This document shows, one piece after another, positions 1,858-45,161 of a DNA stretch of 45,161 bases. The notes beneath the pieces were generated by a model. That model ran no database searches, had not been told where the DNA came from, and saw nothing but the letters and a program-made list of their open reading frames with translations. The DNA is from Escherichia phage KW1E_UTAR. Each line of letters opens with the position of its first letter. Position 1 is the stretch's first letter. Position numbers and translations under genes: made by a program. The stretch lies in sequence record MZ506873, one strand, 5' to 3'.

Positions 1858-2520
1858 ATGTCATTCGCTCAATTTATACTGAAGAAGGTGGATAATGGTT
1901 CCGCCGCTGAAGCTGAAGTTCTGAAGCGTAGGAAGGCAGAAGGCCGGGCCGGGCTACCGAAGGCAGCGCCGAAGAAACGCGGACCTAAAGCGAAGTGGAC
2001 GCCGGAGCGCGACGAGCGACTTAAGAACCTGGCGCGCAGATATACCGGGCCGGAGATCGCCGAAAAGATGGGCCTGACTTACTGTTCCGTCAGGACTCGC
2101 GCTTCACGTATAGGCGTAAAGCTGATTGGTCATCGCGGCAAGTACCACGAATGGACTCATGAAGAAGTAGAGCTTGTCAAAATCATGAGGGAGAAGGGTT
2201 ACACGTCGGTTGAGATCGGGAAGGTCCTGAAGGTCAGCGATATCCAGGTTCGCGGCACAATCCACAGAATGAAACTTCCGGCGCTCAGGAAGAAGTGGTC
2301 GCTTGAAATGGAATACGCTGTCGCCGCTTACTACAAGGAGAAGGACAGCACGATCCTGGAGTTCGTTCTCAAGATCAAGAAGTCATCCCTACATTCACGA
2401 TATGGTCGACTATCTGCAATGCGTCGACTGTCTCACCTTCGCGGCCTGAAGAACGTCAAGGATCTGGTGGCTGAATACTGCGAAAAGAAAGGCATTGCAT
2501 TACCATCGCGTAATAGTTAA
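1858..2520 (+). CDS. DNA-binding protein with two tandem GcrA-like HTH repeats
   Basis: Repeats KWTPERDERLKNLARRYTGPEIAEKMGLTYCSVRTRASRIGVKL and EWTHEEVELVKIMREKGYTSVEIGKVLKVSDIQVRGTIHRMKL match the GcrA N-terminal pattern as I recall it; start ATG 1858 after GGAG. Confidence 0.5.
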   Translation: MSFAQFILKKVDNGSAAEAEVLKRRKAEGRAGLPKAAPKKRGPKAKWTPERDERLKNLARRYTGPEIAEKMGLTYCSVRTRASRIGVKLIGHRGKYHEWTHEEVELVKIMREKGYTSVEIGKVLKVSDIQVRGTIHRMKLPALRKKWSLEMEYAVAAYYKEKDSTILEFVLKIKKSSLHSRYGRLSAMRRLSHLRGLKNVKDLVAEYCEKKGIALPSRNS

Positions 2521-2553
2521 TAATCAATGTTCACAAACGAAAGAGGGTTCACC

Positions 2554-2904
2554 ATGCAACGCAAGAAATATAACTTCACACTGCCGCGCCACATCACCAG
2601 AAAGCAATGGCGCATAATCCACCGTGATATGAGAAACAAGCTTCGCGATCTAGGCGGCGACGGCGTAAAACTTATCAGCGAAAAATATGGGACTTGGGCC
2701 ATTTACACCGTGTCTAACCATTCGAAGATAAGCTTCTTCTGGGATCTTGCCAGTCACAAGGAACATGATCGCTCCTTCTTCGCGGCAGCCATTCGCGGAA
2801 ACACTCAGGGCCGAACCATTGATCGCGTATTCGGTACGGTCCTGGCGCTGAAAGACCCGGCACATCCGGCTAATAACCTTCCTCCTCTGGGGGGTGGCGA
2901 GTGA
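2554..2904 (+). CDS. hypothetical protein
   Basis: ORF-track frame 2527..2904; start chosen at ATG 2554, 7 nt after AGAGGG. Confidence 0.5.
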   Translation: MQRKKYNFTLPRHITRKQWRIIHRDMRNKLRDLGGDGVKLISEKYGTWAIYTVSNHSKISFFWDLASHKEHDRSFFAAAIRGNTQGRTIDRVFGTVLALKDPAHPANNLPPLGGGE

Positions 2905-3434
2905 AGCCGATCACCATCAACCTATCAGACGACGACATCGAATTCGCCTACTACCTTAATGGTAGGGAAGAGACATTCGCGAAGAGTTTAAGCCAGTGCA
3001 GCCCGGACAGTCGGGCTGTGGGAATACTGGGGGAAATGGCGGCGACTCACTTCCTTCGTGGAATGTACGGGACGAAGCGATCTGTCGTTCCTATGGGGCT
3101 GTCTGCCCGCGCTGGCGGCGGCCTTAACGCTTACGGAATGGGTGACATCATCACCGTGATGAACGGCTCGCCCTCCCACAGGACGAAGGAGGTTCACACG
3201 TTCGAAGTGAAGGCGCGCACCGCTGGTGCAGGTAAGGGAAACCTTGTTCGATGTGACAGCGCCGAACAGTATCAGGAGTCCGGCATTATGCGCGTCATCT
3301 TCGTGGACGTCGATGTCCAGCCTGATCGTGCAGTCTGCCAGATCGTCGGCTACCATCAGCCTGAAGACATCCTTGAATGGGACGTGGTCACAAATGGCAT
3401 GGGTCAGGAATGCTATATCATGCCCGTAATTTGA
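2901..3434 (+). CDS. hypothetical protein, possible PD-(D/E)XK (VRR-NUC-like) nuclease
   Basis: GTG start overlapping upstream stop; GMGDIIT...FEVK...SAEQ...RVIFV resembles a D...(E)xK nuclease core. Confidence 0.45.
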   Translation: MKPITINLSDDDIEFAYYLNGREETFAKSLSQCSPDSRAVGILGEMAATHFLRGMYGTKRSVVPMGLSARAGGGLNAYGMGDIITVMNGSPSHRTKEVHTFEVKARTAGAGKGNLVRCDSAEQYQESGIMRVIFVDVDVQPDRAVCQIVGYHQPEDILEWDVVTNGMGQECYIMPVI

Positions 3435-3459
3435 CCGACAAGATCCACGGCGTTACTAT

Positions 3460-3490
3460 TCCCCGGACTAACACTTCGGGGATTTTTTTT
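3460..3490 (+). terminator. rho-independent terminator
   Basis: TCCCCG-gactaacactt-CGGGGA hairpin followed by a T8 run. Confidence 0.55.
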
Positions 3491-3766
3491 ATGCATAAGA
3501 TGCTATGGGTCGCTATCGCTGGCCTGGTCGGGGCCATCATCGGGATGTTCCGTTCCAAGGCTGACACTCTCACACAGCGCGCTTCGTTCGTCCTGTTCGG
3601 ATTCGCCGCGTCAATCTTCCTGACTCCGCTGGCTGCCCGCTGGTTCGGTCTGGGTGACATTTACGAGGTCGGCGGCGCTGGCTTCATTATCGGCATGTTC
3701 TGGATTGCTATTCTGGACCGGGTGAAGCAAGCTATGACGGACGGTAAATTACCGGAGGTCAAATAA
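3491..3766 (+). CDS. putative holin (three predicted transmembrane segments)
   Basis: Small hydrophobic protein (MHKMLWVAIAGLVGAIIGMF...) immediately upstream of the endolysin cassette; no clear SD. Confidence 0.5.
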   Translation: MHKMLWVAIAGLVGAIIGMFRSKADTLTQRASFVLFGFAASIFLTPLAARWFGLGDIYEVGGAGFIIGMFWIAILDRVKQAMTDGKLPEVK

Positions 3767-9346: not shown

Positions 9347-10774
9347 TTATTCGTCTAACAGTGGATTGTTAGCCATTATCTTATAGTCGATGTACATCTG
9401 AACGGCGTTTTCGCCACGCCCTTCGGTCCGCTCAACGATGTGGTGGGCCTTGACCAGCGCGGACAGCGCGCTAATGACAGACCCGCGTGGCATCCCGGTG
9501 ATCTCCGTCACCATGCGGCGCGCTGCTGATACAGATTCGCGGCCCTTCAGTTCGGCGCAGAACACGCGATACACCTCTTTCTGGTTATCGGTCCAGCGGT
9601 GACGGGTTCGACGCTCTTCCGGCGTTTCCTGCTTCTCTTCCTTCTGACCGACCACTTCGGCGGAGTTATCCAGGATGTACGTCATGAACGGTGATTTGTT
9701 CACTCCGGGGATCTCCGTCGGCATGTCTTCCAGCTTGATCGTGAACTGGGATTCGTACTCGTCAAGCAACGCCTTCTCTTCGGCCTTCGGGACCGACAGC
9801 GTCGGGCGACCACACAGTCGAAGCGTGGCATTGAACCCGCCGCCGCGCTGCTTGTCCGGGGTCAACATGACACCGTCGCCGTCCTTCTCACGGCGAAGAG
9901 ACCACGTCTTCCACATCGCGCCCTTCGCCGCGCCACCGCCTCGCGAATCCATCTTGCCGTCACCGGACAGGCTGGCCTTCGTCGGGTGGGACAGGAAAAG
10001 CCCGGCAGCCCCGATCGATTTGCAGAACAGCAGAGAGTTCACGCTAATGGCTTGCTGGTCATCGTTGCTGTTCTCTTCCAGCGACGAACCGTTCGACCGG
10101 ATGCAATGGGTCATGAGCGCGGCCTTAGTGTCGAACACCACCAGCTTGATCGGCTCACCAGCGGCCCAGTCATACAGCGTATTGATGTGGTTCGTCAGCG
10201 CTTCGCCTGGGCGGATGCCTTCCTTCGTCTTAACGAACGCCATAAGGTTCGGGAAGTTCGCAGTCACATAGACGCGGTCCTGAAGCTGGACGTCTTCAGC
10301 CAGTTCGATAGCGCGCAGCATAGCGCGGAATCCTTCCGGGTCCTCTGAATACACCACGACCCGCCCAGGCACCACGCGGAACGCTCCGAGGAAGTGACCT
10401 ATCTGTGTGTCGGCGATGCAAGCGGCGAGGCGCGCCACCACTGTCGACTTCCCTGTCCCTGGCCCGGCGACCAGCTCATTGATGGTGTTCGAATACAGCA
10501 TGTGCTCCACCACGACGTCGGGGACGCGGCGATCGGACACCTTCTTCTTCGTCCCGGTCAGTAGGTCCAGCTTGCGCTGAAGGTCGGGAACAGAATCGTT
10601 CTCTTTGGCGTGGAACGCGTCCATGTCCCGATAGACTTCGGCCCACTCTTCCGGCGTCAGTTCGACCTGAAAATCGTCGTCTGTCTCACTTGTCGGAACG
10701 ACCATTTCGACAGGCATGTTCTGGTTGTCTTGCGACGTCGGTTCGACACCGCCGCCATTCTCTAAGTTATCCAC
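9347..10774 (-). CDS. AAA/RecA-like ATPase with C-terminal winged-helix domain (possible replication initiator, helicase or regulator)
   Basis: Walker A GPGTGKST, Walker B-like LVVFDT, C-terminal HTH-like segment; GTG start with AGAGGG upstream. Confidence 0.7.
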   Translation of the reverse strand: MDNLENGGGVEPTSQDNQNMPVEMVVPTSETDDDFQVELTPEEWAEVYRDMDAFHAKENDSVPDLQRKLDLLTGTKKKVSDRRVPDVVVEHMLYSNTINELVAGPGTGKSTVVARLAACIADTQIGHFLGAFRVVPGRVVVYSEDPEGFRAMLRAIELAEDVQLQDRVYVTANFPNLMAFVKTKEGIRPGEALTNHINTLYDWAAGEPIKLVVFDTKAALMTHCIRSNGSSLEENSNDDQQAISVNSLLFCKSIGAAGLFLSHPTKASLSGDGKMDSRGGGAAKGAMWKTWSLRREKDGDGVMLTPDKQRGGGFNATLRLCGRPTLSVPKAEEKALLDEYESQFTIKLEDMPTEIPGVNKSPFMTYILDNSAEVVGQKEEKQETPEERRTRHRWTDNQKEVYRVFCAELKGRESVSAARRMVTEITGMPRGSVISALSALVKAHHIVERTEGRGENAVQMYIDYKIMANNPLLDE

Positions 10775-10825
10775 AGATTTTGACCCTCTCTTGACTGAAC
10801 ATTTTGTCGCGACTGTCTCGCTTTC

Positions 10826-11121
10826 TTAAGACAATACAGCATAGACGCGGCGCGCGCAACGTTCCGACGTCTAAAACATGCATATTACGACCTCACTATC
10901 AGTATGTTGTTTAACCACAGTAAGACAAAAATCCCAAAAGTGGCCCGATATCAATGACTTACGCGTGTCTTAACTTTCCGCCCCCTAATAAATAAAAACA
11001 AGTAAGACAAAACACCTCACGCGTACACTTAACTACTATATATTCCACCCTTGAGGGGTGGATATATATTAGTAGTGTGTAATAAGTGCATCTTGAGGAA
11101 AACAGACAGTCTTGTCTTAAC
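10826..11121. repeat. Cluster of five TAAGACA/TGTCTTA iteron-like repeats in an AT-rich divergent intergenic region
   Basis: TAAGACA at 10827, 10921, 11003; reverse complement at 10966, 11113; palindrome CCACCCttgagGGGTGG at 11045-11061. Confidence 0.6.
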
Positions 11122-11152
11122 TGTTCGACAAAGTAGAATCATACCTCAGTCG

Positions 11153-11161
11153 TGATATAAT
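11153..11161 (+). promoter_or_regulatory. extended -10 promoter element (TGaTATAAT)
   Basis: Perfect TATAAT at 11156-11161 preceded by TG at 11153-11154; about 22 nt upstream of the ATG at 11184. Confidence 0.4.
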
Positions 11162-11183
11162 GAACGCCACAGGAGGACGCAAC

Positions 11184-11696
11184 ATGTCAGACGAAATTAA
11201 ACACGTAACGAAGCGCGGAGTCGGAAGGCAGTTAACCTACACTGACGACGTGCCTGAACGCCTCACAGACTTCTTCGACCGTGATGTGGATGAATTCATC
11301 GTCCATAACTTCACGACCGCTGAGAAGTCGAACTATCGCGTCAAGCCCATCCCTACACTGGCAGGGTTCTGTCGCGAACTGGGTATCGCACCGTCAACGC
11401 TGCACAGATGGATGTCCGTCGAATCGCAACTGACACAGGAGCAGCGCGATGAATTGTGCAATGCTTACTCACGCGCCCGCACGCTACAGGAAAATATCGT
11501 CACCCAGATCGGCATGATGACTAATGGCACGTTCGCCGCTTTCATGCTGAAATGTAACTTCGGATGGCGTGACAACACGGAAGTGAAGACCGACGAGAAC
11601 GTGAAGCCTATCCGTGTCAAGATCGTCAGCGAACGACCTGTCGATGTAGACATCCAGACCACAGAACAGAAACCGATCGAGTGGGGTGATGACTGA
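11184..11696 (+). CDS. terminase small subunit-like HTH protein (tentative)
   Basis: VKPIPTLAGFCRELGIAPSTLHRWM HTH pattern resembles TerS families; start ATG 11184 with AGGAGG 7 nt upstream. Confidence 0.5.
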   Translation: MSDEIKHVTKRGVGRQLTYTDDVPERLTDFFDRDVDEFIVHNFTTAEKSNYRVKPIPTLAGFCRELGIAPSTLHRWMSVESQLTQEQRDELCNAYSRARTLQENIVTQIGMMTNGTFAAFMLKCNFGWRDNTEVKTDENVKPIRVKIVSERPVDVDIQTTEQKPIEWGDD

Positions 11697-16857: not shown

Positions 16858-18207
16858 ATGTCCACAGTTTCAGACCTGTCCTCATTCACAGAACTGACCC
16901 TTACGCCGCCACAGTGGGAATTCCTACAGCTTGACTGTAAACATCCGGCATTCGTCGCCGGGTTCGGTACTGGCAAATCCCAGACCCTTGCAGTGTCAGC
17001 AGTCATCGACTCATGCGAAGGCGGGGCCGACTCCCTCGTCGCTATCCTGGAACCAACCTTCGACCTGTGCCGCACGATCGCCGTCCCCCGCGTCCAGCAG
17101 ATCCTGTCTGAACTGGGAATCCGATCGAAGTACAACAAGAGCGACAACACGATCTACACGTCACACGGCGGGGTGGGTGACTTCCTGTTCCGCTCAATGG
17201 ATAACCCTTCCCGACTGGTAGGCTGGGAAGCGTACAGCGCACATCTTGACGAACTGGACACCCTGAAGAAGAAGGACGCAAAAAGCGTATGGCTGGCGAT
17301 GATCGGGCGTACCCGACAGACCGTTCGGGAAGTCAGCCTGATGGACTGGCTGCCGACCACACGACCAGCCAACCGCGTCGCCGCTTACTGTACGCCTGAA
17401 GGGTTTAACTTCCTCTATGGGCGATGGGCGAAGGACAAGGACCGCGCGCGTGATGCTGGCTACGGCATGATCCAGGCTGCGTCCATGTCTAACCCGTTCC
17501 TTCCGCCTGGCTACCTGGACAGCTTGCGAGCCAGTTATGACCCGCAACGCTTCCAGGCGTACGCTGAAGGCAGATTCGTCAACCTGAACGGCGGGTCCAT
17601 CTATCACAAGTTCGATCGCAAGCTGAACGGGTGCGACACGACAATCCAACCGGGCGAACCGCTGACCATCGGGCAGGACTTCAACGTCGGCAAAATGGCC
17701 ACTGTTATCTACGTGGACCGCTGGGGGGATGATGGTCTGGAGGAACTCCACGCCGTCGCGGAAATCAAAGACGGAGTAGACACACCGGACGTGATCGAGA
17801 AGTTAACGGCAGCCTATCCGGGCCACGAATTGAACCTGTACCCGGACGCCAGCGGACAGAACACTTCATCGAAGTCCGCTTCCGTGTCAGACGTCGGCCT
17901 GTTCGAAGAGGCTGGCTTCCTGGTGCATGTCCACGGCTCTAACCCACGCGTCAAGGACCGCGTTATCAGCATGAACACCATGATCTGTGACATGAATGGA
18001 CGCCGTCGCCTGAAGGTGAACGAAAAAGCCTGTCCGACGTTTGCAGACTGTCTGGAGCAACAGATCTACGCGGAGAACGGGGAGCCGGACAAGAAGGGGG
18101 GCAAGGACCATATGAACGATGCTGGCGGCTATCCTGTAGTTTATCGCTTCCCTATTATCCGTGATAAGATGGACGCCTCTGACATGACTATCAGATTCGC
18201 ACGATAA
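16858..18207 (+). CDS. terL: terminase large subunit
   Basis: Walker A-like VAGFGTGKSQT near N-terminus, Walker B-like HLDELD, about 450 aa, directly upstream of portal. Confidence 0.85.
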   Translation: MSTVSDLSSFTELTLTPPQWEFLQLDCKHPAFVAGFGTGKSQTLAVSAVIDSCEGGADSLVAILEPTFDLCRTIAVPRVQQILSELGIRSKYNKSDNTIYTSHGGVGDFLFRSMDNPSRLVGWEAYSAHLDELDTLKKKDAKSVWLAMIGRTRQTVREVSLMDWLPTTRPANRVAAYCTPEGFNFLYGRWAKDKDRARDAGYGMIQAASMSNPFLPPGYLDSLRASYDPQRFQAYAEGRFVNLNGGSIYHKFDRKLNGCDTTIQPGEPLTIGQDFNVGKMATVIYVDRWGDDGLEELHAVAEIKDGVDTPDVIEKLTAAYPGHELNLYPDASGQNTSSKSASVSDVGLFEEAGFLVHVHGSNPRVKDRVISMNTMICDMNGRRRLKVNEKACPTFADCLEQQIYAENGEPDKKGGKDHMNDAGGYPVVYRFPIIRDKMDASDMTIRFAR

Positions 18208-42378: not shown

Positions 42379-44350
42379 CTACAAATACCTTTCTTGTAAT
42401 AACGTCTTTACGACCATTTTCCACCTTTCTGTGGGTCACTTTTACCGGTGCCATAAATTTATGGATGTGGCCCATTAATGCCTTTGCGTCCCTGATCTTC
42501 GACAGCGCGGCTCGCTCTTTCGGGTCCAGGACGTGCTTGTTAATGCCATTGTTGCGCCAGTGCATCCTTGCCCCTGGGTTCGTACTGGCGGGCCAGAATA
42601 TTTCCCACGCTCTGAAGGTGGCTTCGCCCTGGTTCCCGATGTCATAGCAGAACGCCAGGCCAGCGCCGTCCTTCGTCGGCTCGATCTTGAACCCACGGAC
42701 GTTGACGAAGTCGTCCTGTGTGTAGTTCTTCCGGTCAAGCTGCTTGTTAGGGTCAATAAGGCGCGCGCCACATCCACGACAGAACCGCGCGACAATGTCG
42801 TTCTCCACGCCACATCCGGCCTGAATGAATTCACCGCGATCGCCGTGAACGTCTTCGCACACGCGGGACTTCCAGAAGTATTCACAGCGCGCTTCGCTGC
42901 CGTCCGGCTGGGTAATCATGTTCGAACAGCGGCGGGCGTGTTCGCCGTTCTGGTGTCCACAGTCCGGGCAGTGCTTATATGACGCGTCACGGACGTCTTT
43001 CACGTACTGGTATTGCTCAAGCATCGGTGAGAAGTAAAGTTCAGCAAGGCAGTCCATAGCCCCGGCGTAGTCCAGAACCAGGTTGTTAATCTTCACGATA
43101 CCCAGTTCGACGTGGTAGTCCTTCAGTTTGCGCATACCGCGCCCGATAAGCTGGGTGATTAGCGTCAAGCTGCCAATCCTGCGAAGGATGACTATCGTGT
43201 CCCACGGCGGAACGTTCACACCAGTGGTAAGACAACCCACCTGGAATATGAACTTCAGCTTCCCGTCATAAGCCTCTTTCAGCATCCGGCGGCGATCTGC
43301 TTTTGAGGTCTTATCTGTCACGATGCCGTATGACACGCCAGGCGGAAGCGCTGCCGCCGCTTCCTGGCAGTGTTTTTGCCCGGCACACGTAACCAGTACA
43401 CAGTTGCGGTTCTTCGTCTTCTCTACCACATCCAGCATGATCTTCTGTGTCATGCTGCCCTGCGCAAGTATGCGCTTCTGCATTTCGTTTAGCTGCGCGT
43501 CGCTGAAGTCACCAGCCCCGTCATTGCCGTCACTTTCGAACCCTTCCAGATCGTAGGTCATTTCCTCTTCGATGGTCCCGAAGTCAGTCGGAACTACCGC
43601 GCCGAAGTCGACCAGATATTCCGTGGAAATATCCACGATGACCTTACGCCAGAATCCTGGCGTCGACATGTCCGTGTTCACGATCGGCTGTATGCCACGA
43701 TAGTCTGTTCCGGTGTACCCGATGACGACTAGCGGCTTCCCGTACTTTTCCATGCATCGGCGCTGTAGTTCACGGATGATAAGGGTGTAGCCTTTGCGTC
43801 CGGCATCAATCATCTTTTCAAGCGTGTCTTCTGGGTGGTAAGCCCGGCCCTTCTTCTGGACCATAGTTTCCTGTGAGTCGACCAGGTCGTCGACGTCGAC
43901 ATGGTGGCATTCATCGATCGCCAGTATGCGCGGGACGTAGTCCTTCAGTCGCTTGTTCAACGCATTAACGACGGTCCCTTCCGACCCGACAATGACAGGG
44001 TAAAACGTGGACTTTCGACCCAGCGACGCGCAGAAGATGGAGTTCTCTACGCCGAAGTTGAGCATTTCGGCGGCGTCCTGTTCGACGATCTCACCCTGGC
44101 GTGAAAGAACCATCATTCCCCAGTTAATCTTTCGAGCGCGGCGCGCCAGCAGTGAAATCAGCGTGGTCTTACCTGCTGACACGGCAGCCTTGATAATGAA
44201 CGGGGCCTGATAGCCGTTTATCTCTTTCGATGTCTCGTTATGCGTGGCCCACTGGTATGAATACGGTTCGTATGGGGTCACGCCTACGCCAGCCTTCAGG
44301 CGTGACAGGTCCATGTCTGCAATCTGTTCAGTAATAGACTTTACCAACAT
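42359..44350 (-). CDS. superfamily-2 DNA helicase (DEAH-like) with C-terminal zinc ribbons
   Basis: Walker A AAVSAGKTT, DECH box LAIDECHHVD, CPDCGH...CRGCGARL zinc-ribbon-like motifs. Confidence 0.8.
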   Translation of the reverse strand: MLVKSITEQIADMDLSRLKAGVGVTPYEPYSYQWATHNETSKEINGYQAPFIIKAAVSAGKTTLISLLARRARKINWGMMVLSRQGEIVEQDAAEMLNFGVENSIFCASLGRKSTFYPVIVGSEGTVVNALNKRLKDYVPRILAIDECHHVDVDDLVDSQETMVQKKGRAYHPEDTLEKMIDAGRKGYTLIIRELQRRCMEKYGKPLVVIGYTGTDYRGIQPIVNTDMSTPGFWRKVIVDISTEYLVDFGAVVPTDFGTIEEEMTYDLEGFESDGNDGAGDFSDAQLNEMQKRILAQGSMTQKIMLDVVEKTKNRNCVLVTCAGQKHCQEAAAALPPGVSYGIVTDKTSKADRRRMLKEAYDGKLKFIFQVGCLTTGVNVPPWDTIVILRRIGSLTLITQLIGRGMRKLKDYHVELGIVKINNLVLDYAGAMDCLAELYFSPMLEQYQYVKDVRDASYKHCPDCGHQNGEHARRCSNMITQPDGSEARCEYFWKSRVCEDVHGDRGEFIQAGCGVENDIVARFCRGCGARLIDPNKQLDRKNYTQDDFVNVRGFKIEPTKDGAGLAFCYDIGNQGEATFRAWEIFWPASTNPGARMHWRNNGINKHVLDPKERAALSKIRDAKALMGHIHKFMAPVKVTHRKVENGRKDVITRKVFVDESFDI

Positions 44351-44424: not shown

Positions 44425-45161
44425 GTGGCTAGTTACGATAAAACTGAAGTCCTTCAGGCAATGCTGACCAGGTGGCCTTCGGCCCTTGCGGAGCTGTGCG
44501 GATGGTCTGCTGATACGTTCAATGAACGGAAGCATTCATCATGCCCGGTCTGTGGTGGGCGGGACCGCTTCAGATGGGGGCATAAGAAGCCGAAGCAGCG
44601 CGACGAAGGGTTCGCATGGTGCAACCAGTGCGGAAGTCACGATGGGATATGGTGGTTCAGTAAGGCGCGAAATCAGTCGTTCGCTGAAGCCATTAACGAT
44701 CTGGGTGAATGGATAGGCGGTATGTCCGTCCAGCAGTTCGACAACGTCGCGAAGAAGGCGAAGGCGATGTCGAAGACGGTGGAGCGTCCGACGGTCCGCA
44801 TAAGCCACGAACAGGCCGAAGAACTGCTATCCCGCCCAGCGAAGGAAGGGTTCATCTATCTGCCGTGTCACGAAGTGGTCGACGGCGACATTCAGGCGCG
44901 CCCGGTCAACGTTGCGCGGGTAGGTAAGGACTTCAGCGTAACATTCGCCGCTGGTCGTGCATTCCCTGATTCACCGACCACGTTCACCTGGGGAAGCGTG
45001 ACGCCAATCAACCGGAAGCTGGACGGGTCGCCTGTCTACATGATCGAGGATCTCGATCTTGGCCTTGAGATAGCGGAGCGACACGACCGCGAAGTGTGGA
45101 TCGCGTGGGGATGCCTGAACATGCTGGAAGTGTCGGGCCGATACACTGGGGAGCGAGAAAT
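44425..45161 (+). CDS. DNA primase (zinc-binding N-terminus plus TOPRIM-like region), N-terminal part
   Basis: CPVCGGRDRFRW...WCNQCGSHDG zinc motif; YMIEDLDLGLEIAE acidic TOPRIM-like block; GTG start at 44425 after AAGGGG; no stop before window end. Confidence 0.7.
   Translation, partial: MASYDKTEVLQAMLTRWPSALAELCGWSADTFNERKHSSCPVCGGRDRFRWGHKKPKQRDEGFAWCNQCGSHDGIWWFSKARNQSFAEAINDLGEWIGGMSVQQFDNVAKKAKAMSKTVERPTVRISHEQAEELLSRPAKEGFIYLPCHEVVDGDIQARPVNVARVGKDFSVTFAAGRAFPDSPTTFTWGSVTPINRKLDGSPVYMIEDLDLGLEIAERHDREVWIAWGCLNMLEVSGRYTGERE
45107..45161. repeat. 55-bp exact duplicate of positions 1-55 (circular closure overlap)
   Basis: Read directly: GGGGATGCCTGAACATGCTGGAAGTGTCGGGCCGATACACTGGGGAGCGAGAAAT at both ends. 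Confidence 0.9.

Follow-up and report, generated by a model that had tools for sequence, protein, structure and literature searches.

Genomic setting of the intergenic region

The DNA analysed here (hereafter the window) is the whole 45,161-nt sequence of Escherichia phage KW1E_UTAR (MZ506873). Positions 1-55 recur exactly at 45107-45161 and, because of this 55-bp end overlap, we take the window to be a complete genome of about 45,106 bp that was assembled as a circle; its ends are not the physical ends of the phage. The region of interest is a 409-bp gap (10775-11183) between a leftward operon headed by a 475-aa AAA_25 gene and a rightward operon headed by a GP3_package gene (Table 1). A preliminary description of this DNA had called the first an AAA/winged-helix gene and the second a TerS-like gene, and both identities hold: the former product matches Pfam AAA_25 (E 1.7e-16) and has a C-terminal winged helix in its AlphaFold model, and the latter matches GP3_package and a PHROG terminase family. 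In Klebsiella phage vB_KM5a1-KLB22, which is 93% identical to the window over the 3 kb tested, the AAA_25 protein is annotated as 'regulatory protein repA', and we refer to it here as RepA. KLB22 is a siphophage assigned to the proposed family Ca. Mavericviridae (PMC11845039). Where termini could not be predicted with PhageTerm, its authors set the start of a genome by the closest relative or by an arbitrary gene such as the terminase (PMC11845039), and the KLB22 record begins at the large terminase gene.

Other replication and recombination genes of the window encode an SF2 (ResIII/DEAD-type) helicase, a VRR-NUC nuclease, a RecE-like exonuclease and an SSB. The window ORFs that were scanned against Pfam and PHROGs gave no polymerase or primase domain, so that host machinery would need to be recruited. 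Neither a CI/Cro-type regulator nor a repressor-type gene was found among the same ORFs. The only other evident DNA-binding regulator found is a 240-aa protein (1798-2520) with GcrA/sigma-70 region 4-like HTH matches and a match to the PHROG 'transcriptional regulator, D5-like', which makes it an alternative candidate reader of the repeats described below. Between the TerS-like gene and the large terminase gene (16858-18207) lie about 5 kb of small unknown ORFs; in the related locus L017 a small-terminase-like gene is directly upstream of TerL.

The gap itself contains no ORF of 40 aa or more, the shorter ORFs look random, and no known RNA family was matched at E ≤ 1. GC skew turns near the gap and was considered as evidence of an origin, but its turning points coincide with switches in gene orientation and it is therefore uninformative.

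Table 1. Features of the gap, its flanking genes and the replacement genes of KLB16-type relatives (window coordinates unless a locus is named)
Feature	Position	Strand	Remarks
RepA-like gene	9347..10774	-	475 aa; Pfam AAA_25
DnaA box TTATCCACA	10767..10775	+	perfect TTWTNCACA match; overlaps repA start codon
Site 1 TTAAGACAA	10826..10834	+	overlaps -10 of weak candidate repA promoter
Candidate repA promoter	TTGCGC 10854-10859; TATTGT 10831-10836	-	17-nt spacer; read by eye; below scan threshold
Block Y TATTACGACCTCACTATCAGTATG	10883..10907	+	conserved 24-bp block
Site 2 AGTAAGACAAAA	10919..10930	+	CCGACA counterpart in L003
IHF consensus site TATCAATGACTTA	10949..10961	+	match to WATCAANNNNTTR; between convergent sites 2 and 3
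Site 3 GTTAAGACAC	10965..10974	-	invariant in three genomes; L003 counterpart TCCGACCGACAAG
AT-rich tract	10985..11014		80% AT; contains site 4
Site 4 AGTAAGACAAAA	11001..11012	+	TAAGACA copy at 11003
Block V GTGTACGCGTGAGG	11015..11028	-	14/14 bases shared with L009, same orientation
Long imperfect palindrome	11024..11081		58 bp; GC core and alternating-AT arms
Palindrome GC core	CCACCC 11045-11050; GGGTGG 11056-11061		TTGAG between the arms
Site 5 GTTAAGACAA	11112..11121	-	overlaps -35-like TTGTCT of candidate rightward promoter
Extended -10 TGATATAAT	11153..11161	+	predicted promoter of TerS-like operon
Shine-Dalgarno AGGAGG	11171-11176	+	RBS as annotated in KLB22
TerS-like gene	11184..11696	+	170 aa; GP3_package / PHROG terminase; has HTH
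562-563-aa P-loop gene	L011 (KLB16) 1928-3616; L014 868-2559; L015 905-2593		

Five TAAGACA repeats are clustered in the gap

The gap holds five copies of TAAGACA, three forward (10827, 10921 and 11003) and two inverted (10966 and 11113), as had been described. A search of the whole 45,161-base window found a single copy outside the gap, at 43228; the enrichment that the preliminary description had anticipated is thus real, with five of the six genome copies within 409 bp (binomial p = 3.6e-10). When the gap was shuffled with its dinucleotides preserved, a non-trivial 7-mer reached five or more copies in 2 of 5000 shuffles. Genome-wide the gap is the only 409-bp stretch in which an 8-mer is present four times, and one of two places in which a 7-mer is present five times, the other being a cluster of CGACGTC, which is counted on both strands because it is self-complementary. 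This CGACGTC/GACGTCG cluster (self-complementary AatII-type core GACGTC) gives five counts in the interval 10501-10909, across the beginning of repA and into the left part of the gap, and includes the inverted pair GACGTCGG (10734) and CCGACGTC (10864).

Brought into one orientation, the five sites (numbered here from left to right) give the consensus KTAAGACAA. An extended 11-mer had been reported to occur twice; it does so, but the repeated unit is really a 12-mer, which constitutes sites 2 and 4. The TAAGACA copies are spaced by 94, 45, 37 and 110 bp. That they are few (four or five), short, dispersed and of mixed orientation, unlike the tandem 17-22-bp iterons of classical plasmids, counts against an origin; tandem direct repeats with helical-turn spacing are absent from the window and were found only in L015, a relative of the KLB16 type.

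Predicted promoter-like hexamers are touched only by the outer sites. Site 1 is a possible autoregulatory operator at the candidate repA promoter, and site 5 stands about 50 bp upstream of the extended -10 promoter. The latter promoter, already noticed in the preliminary description, has an equivalent in all relatives read, in every one of which a TGnTAnAnT element precedes the TerS-like gene. A GC-rich alternating tract, ACGCGGCGCGCGCAACGT (10845-10862), lies within the otherwise AT-rich gap over the -35 of the candidate repA promoter; it is kept in KLB22 and in a contig from IMG/VR, but not in the related contig L003.

Host-factor sites, an easily melted stretch and conserved blocks

The IHF consensus has only one match in the 45-kb window, and that match lies in the gap; the equivalent gap contains a match in 9 of 13 related loci. 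Likewise, the box at the start of repA is the only match to the DnaA consensus in the whole window. The equivalent gaps of KLB22, L003, KLB16, L010 and L016 each have a DnaA box, which is the sole box of its locus, and in L016 it is the same AAATCTGTGGATAAC, there in non-coding DNA. We rejected the box as a universal feature, since it is absent from L004, L006, L009, L014, L015 and L017. That several relatives are without a DnaA box, and several without a strict IHF consensus, counts against an origin.

The least stable and most AT-rich 100 bp of the genome are at 10986-11085, where the computed stability (dG -118.5, against a mean of -147.8 and an sd of 6.9) is 4.2 sd below the genome mean, although other 100-bp stretches are nearly as AT-rich (0.67 against 0.68), which again counts against an origin. 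Within this region we propose the AT-rich tract and the AT arms of the long palindrome as an unwinding element. The previously noted GC palindrome, CCACCC-ttgag-GGGTGG with AT flanks, is present and turns out to be the core of the longer imperfect one, which as single-stranded DNA has a fold z of -5.4. In L003 the core reads CCATCC/GGATGG as against CCACCC/GGGTGG in the window, a compensatory pair. Distant relatives have in the same slot a run of A8, a GC hairpin and a run of T7, an element that looks like a bidirectional terminator; checked as an intrinsic terminator, the window palindrome has no proper T-run on either strand, and it lies between divergent promoters.

Blocks Y and V are conserved far above the rest of the gap. 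Y shares 18-21 of its 24 bases with relatives of 48-53% RepA identity, in which it is flipped in place, and is duplicated in L016 with the copies 127 bp apart. Y and V could be read by TerS, as a pac signal, or by host factors. Both Y and the block containing the IHF site (10941-10963) are reverse-complemented in place in L009 (counterparts at 1441-1465 and 1377-1404), and the flips separate the window, KLB22 and L003 from L004, L006, L009 and L010 with order and position unchanged. Since each block is flipped in place and the order is kept, a single segmental inversion cannot explain the pattern.

RepA joins a predicted helicase core to a winged helix

The N-terminal 80 residues of RepA are acidic and disordered. 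Downstream of these, Walker A (GPGTGKST, 103-110), Walker B (D214), H262 and R277 could be aligned to RSF1010 RepA, so that the protein appears to have a hexameric-helicase ATPase core with intact catalytic motifs. Its PHROG matches are to the helicase portions of primase/helicase families, its best PDB sequence match is RSF1010 RepA (1g8y, E 1.2e-5), and the best structural match of the AlphaFold model by TM-score in Foldseek is also RSF1010 RepA (1nlf; TM 0.62, rmsd 4.0), making this the closest solved homologue of the helicase core. No SF3 or MCM-type family is among the Pfam, PHROG and PDB matches. As modelled, the core is a RecA-fold helicase of the RSF1010 RepA/DnaB class.

On the same polypeptide AlphaFold predicts a C-terminal winged helix (about 395-462; pLDDT about 88-90, topology H-S-H-H-S-S), which Foldseek matches to the winged helices of PadR, MecI, BlaI and MarR with a probability of about 1.0. 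We propose that RepA is an initiator-helicase; the likeness of its winged helix to generic transcription regulators (PadR, MecI, MarR) and not specifically to initiators counts against an origin. RepA homologues are rare, with six clusters among 5.8 billion proteins and 17 matches among 1.84 billion representatives, and none was found among 72,556 plasmids (PLSDB). A search for further relatives gave only one contig, of 98%, in IMG/VR and none in JGI metagenomes or GTDB genomes.

A concerted change of motif in a relative

The gap of KLB22 is 98% identical to that of the window, against 93% for the surrounding 3 kb. Among the window, KLB22 and the IMG/VR contig, sites 2 to 5 show no substitutions, while the bases beside sites 2 and 5 do. 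Both of the closest genomes have a degenerate site 1 (TTGAAACA in KLB22 and GTGAGACA in the IMG/VR contig), and conservation of the repeats among these three genomes stands for four of the sites and fails for site 1. With so few substitutions, the three-genome footprint is only suggestive.

The layout of terS-like gene, gap (445-514 bp) and repA is kept in five more contigs. In L003, whose RepA is 78% identical to that of the window, the gap retains the backbone of -10 element, palindrome, blocks V and Y, IHF site and DnaA box, but all five positions occupied by TAAGACA in the window are occupied by CCGACA, and YCCGACAR is present in ten copies in 468 bp. Judged from the alignment, the change from TAAGACA to CCGACA is a concerted specificity switch at conserved positions, and such a change is what altered specificity of a trans-acting binding protein predicts. 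The presumed recognition helix of RepA differs between the window and L003 at four residues (PRGSVISALSAL versus PRGTVISSLDSL) and the wing at one. We conclude from these comparisons that the repeats are, in all appearance, real and evolving binding sites.

Three CCGACA pairs of L003 (730-760, 958-985 and 1077-1098) are arranged head to head with a spacing of 11-17 bp, like dimer operators; one of the pairs arose through an insertion of 22 bp with respect to the window.

In distant relatives the repeats appear to track the replication gene

Distant contigs in which RepA is 47-53% identical have 13-15 copies of STGAA each, and the gap of each relative has its own strongly enriched motif, the HSE3-type phages apart. 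In these (RepA 32% identical) the terS-gap-repA layout is kept, and a simple search gave no clear iteron cluster. The TerS-like protein is 67-84% identical across relatives. Its recognition helix is IAPSTLHRWMS in both the window and L004 and IAPVTLHRWMS in both KLB16 and L003, yet these four have four different repeats. The suggestion that the TerS-like protein binds the repeats is therefore not upheld, and we ruled out TerS as the reader of the variable repeats because identical helix-turn-helices accompany different repeats.

KLB16, L014 and L015 have a near-identical TerS HTH and, in the RepA slot, an unrelated 562-563-aa P-loop protein (Table 1). It has no Pfam or PDB match, only weak matches to the PHROG 'DNA primase', and it probably represents an uncharacterised family of replication initiators or helicases. 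The repeats in these three loci are TAGTAAA, TTACTAT and TAGTATT, and in L015 an AT-rich centre is flanked on either side by three 11-bp copies in tandem. Yet another helicase gene lies upstream of the gap in L016, where the repeats are TGACAGA, and L017 has an AAA_25 gene that is co-directional. Across these loci the repeats appear to follow the replication gene and not TerS. Because TerS is constant and the repeats change together with the replication gene, the family would use the long gap upstream of terS as a slot for repeats linked to that gene. Counting against an origin here is the fact that the KLB16-type replacement is one contiguous block, so that its association with the replication gene could reflect no more than physical adjacency.

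The RepA proteins of L009 (P0005) and L010 (P0006) are 98-99% identical over residues 1-400 and 48% identical over the C-terminal 90 or so, the winged helix, which by sequence comparison looks like a clean domain swap within one gene. The two gaps are 98% identical near terS and 35% near repA, and the combined pattern would fit a swap of the winged helix plus iterons. Co-variation of repeats and initiator is thus suggested by the L003 switch, the block replacement and the P0005/P0006 swap; on the other side, L009 and L010 differ in several other mosaic patches, which counts against the swap, and the shift in counts of CTGAA and GTGAA between L010 and L009 is not significant (Fisher p = 0.20).

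Alternative functions of the gap

Could the gap be a purely transcriptional operator array for the divergent repA and terS-operon promoters, read by the RepA winged helix or by the 240-aa HTH protein, with replication starting elsewhere or by recombination? Its place between divergent promoters, the overlap of sites 1 and 5 with promoter-like hexamers, the three operator-like pairs of L003 and a winged helix like those of PadR, MecI and MarR repressors would all suit such an array. IHF and DnaA also regulate promoters, and the recombination genes (RecE-like exonuclease, SSB and SF2 helicase) are present. We nevertheless regard this as unlikely. Sites 2 to 4 are grouped around the IHF site and AT-rich tract, at a distance of 100-250 bp from both promoters; the repeats of the various relatives appear to go with a helicase-class gene that belongs to several unrelated families; the 11-bp tandem arrays of L015 around an AT-rich centre are typical of origins; and the ORFs scanned include no repressor-type gene.

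A packaging site of the lambda cosB or SPP1 pac type, in which the small terminase binds inverted repeats with the help of IHF bending, seems to us very improbable. In lambda cosB short inverted gpNu1 R sites flank the IHF site I1 just upstream of the small terminase gene, R3 on one side and R2 on the other, and the convergence of sites 2 and 3 on the IHF site resembles this R3-I1-R2 arrangement. TerS also has an HTH, and the TerS-like gene invariably follows the gap directly, also in L016 and L017, whose replication genes are co-directional. The repeats of KW1E_UTAR, however, show no co-variation with the recognition helix of TerS (one helix is shared by the window and L004 and another by KLB16 and L003, all with different repeats) and turn over completely while TerS is conserved. 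Blocks Y and V may nonetheless be read by TerS. As a further difference from lambda, the genome was assembled as a circle in which no cohesive end is defined. The last alternative, in which the repeats arose by chance or from the composition of an AT-rich intergenic region and serve no specific function, would draw on the repeat-prone, AT-rich nature of such regions and on the loss of site 1 from the closest relatives. The clustering (p about 4e-10, with 2 of 5000 shuffles), the concerted replacement of the motif at the same five positions in L003 and the enrichment of every relative's gap for its own motif speak against it, and we regard it as effectively refuted by the comparative data.

A probable origin with divergent operator functions

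The initial reading of the gap as an iteron origin or multi-site operator gains support from the concerted motif switch and from the exchange of the repeats along with the replication gene. Several features outside that initial reading point towards an origin: the sole IHF consensus, the sole DnaA box and the least stable 100 bp of the genome, and the lack of any phage polymerase or primase among the ORFs scanned. Probably the gap plays both roles. On balance we think it probable that a self-loading helicase-initiator uses the gap as its iteron-type origin and that the outer sites also serve as operators of the divergent promoters. As expected of an iteron origin, it has short repeats clustered beyond chance, an adjacent AT-rich element (by computation) and DnaA and IHF consensus sites. 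The clustered repeats, the IHF bending site and the easily melted stretch make it the most likely landing place of the phage helicase.

In the scheme that we infer for the protein bound at the sites, DNA melting, helicase loading and promoter control, RepA, as a hexameric RecA-fold helicase, would bind the KTAAGACAA sites through its C-terminal winged helix, host IHF would bend the DNA between convergent sites 2 and 3, and DnaA may bind the box at the start of repA. Melting would then occur in the AT-rich tract and the palindrome's AT arms (10985-11081), RepA would load itself at the melted region, and host primase and polymerase would complete the work. Because the outer sites 1 and 5 overlap or abut the promoters of repA and the terS operon, the same binding could feed back on transcription.

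More tentatively, and with somewhat less than even confidence, we suggest that a RecA-fold helicase of the RSF1010-RepA/DnaB class with a swappable winged helix acts as a one-protein initiator and replicative helicase in a lytic enterobacterial siphophage, that the winged helix and the iterons form an exchanged or co-evolving specificity cassette, and that the origin consists of orientation-independent blocks, the last in view of the in-place reversal of the IHF and Y blocks between lineages. The known bacterial self-loading initiator-helicases have SF3 or MCM-like motors. Should RepA prove to be a self-loading helicase of the SF4 class, more motor classes would have independently acquired an origin-reading winged helix.

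The locus offers a testable origin and initiator for the recently proposed and unstudied Ca. Mavericviridae (PMC11845039), which must capture the host replisome since they are apparently without a polymerase or primase of their own. The motifs TAAGACA, CCGACA, STGAA and TAGTAAA provide a natural set of variants for studying how initiator-iteron specificity evolves, and a defined origin would be useful for engineering these Klebsiella phages.

Comparison with known origins

At the origins of Staphylococcus aureus pathogenicity islands (SaPIs), a self-loading helicase uses its C-terminal winged helix to recognise short iterons that lie on both sides of an AT-rich centre and point in opposite directions (PMC9371898). 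Like the KW1E_UTAR locus, they combine a hexameric motor (proposed in the case of RepA) and a C-terminal winged helix in one protein, place the iterons beside the rep gene and differ in specificity between related elements (PMC9371898). The SaPI motors are SF3 or MCM-like AAA+ proteins, whereas that of RepA is RecA-fold of the RSF1010 RepA/DnaB class, and SaPI iterons are 5-6 nt long, in 6-12 copies downstream of rep, as against four or five sites of 7-10 nt upstream of repA and between divergent promoters. There is no sequence homology, and the gap has in addition an IHF site, a DnaA box and a long palindrome. With its RecA-fold motor, an origin upstream of the gene, and these added host-factor sites and palindrome, it would be an analogue of the SaPI origin and not a family member.

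In oriV of the IncQ plasmid RSF1010, iterons occur together with an AT-rich stretch and a large palindrome (ssiA/ssiB); its 20-bp tandem iterons are recognised by a separate protein, RepC, and RepB' primes at the palindrome. In KW1E_UTAR, on the other hand, the winged helix is part of the predicted helicase, and homologues of RepB and RepC were not found. The alpha protein of satellite phage P4 unites a helicase and a C-terminal winged helix that binds the origin at short repeated sites, but it has a primase domain and an SF3 helicase and needs a distant second repeat cluster (crr), whereas RepA, which is not homologous in sequence to alpha, has no primase domain and a predicted RecA-fold motor, and the window has no second TAAGACA cluster (only the stray copy at 43228). 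In plasmids pSC101, F and P1 the initiator gene lies beside an origin with a DnaA box, an IHF site, an AT-rich region and autoregulatory initiator sites; the initiators are Rep proteins of WH1-WH2 type that have no motor and need DnaB/DnaC, and the iterons are tandem direct repeats of 17-22 bp. With these plasmids the KW1E_UTAR gap shares the adjacent initiator-like gene, the DnaA box, the IHF site, the AT-rich region and a site over the predicted initiator promoter.
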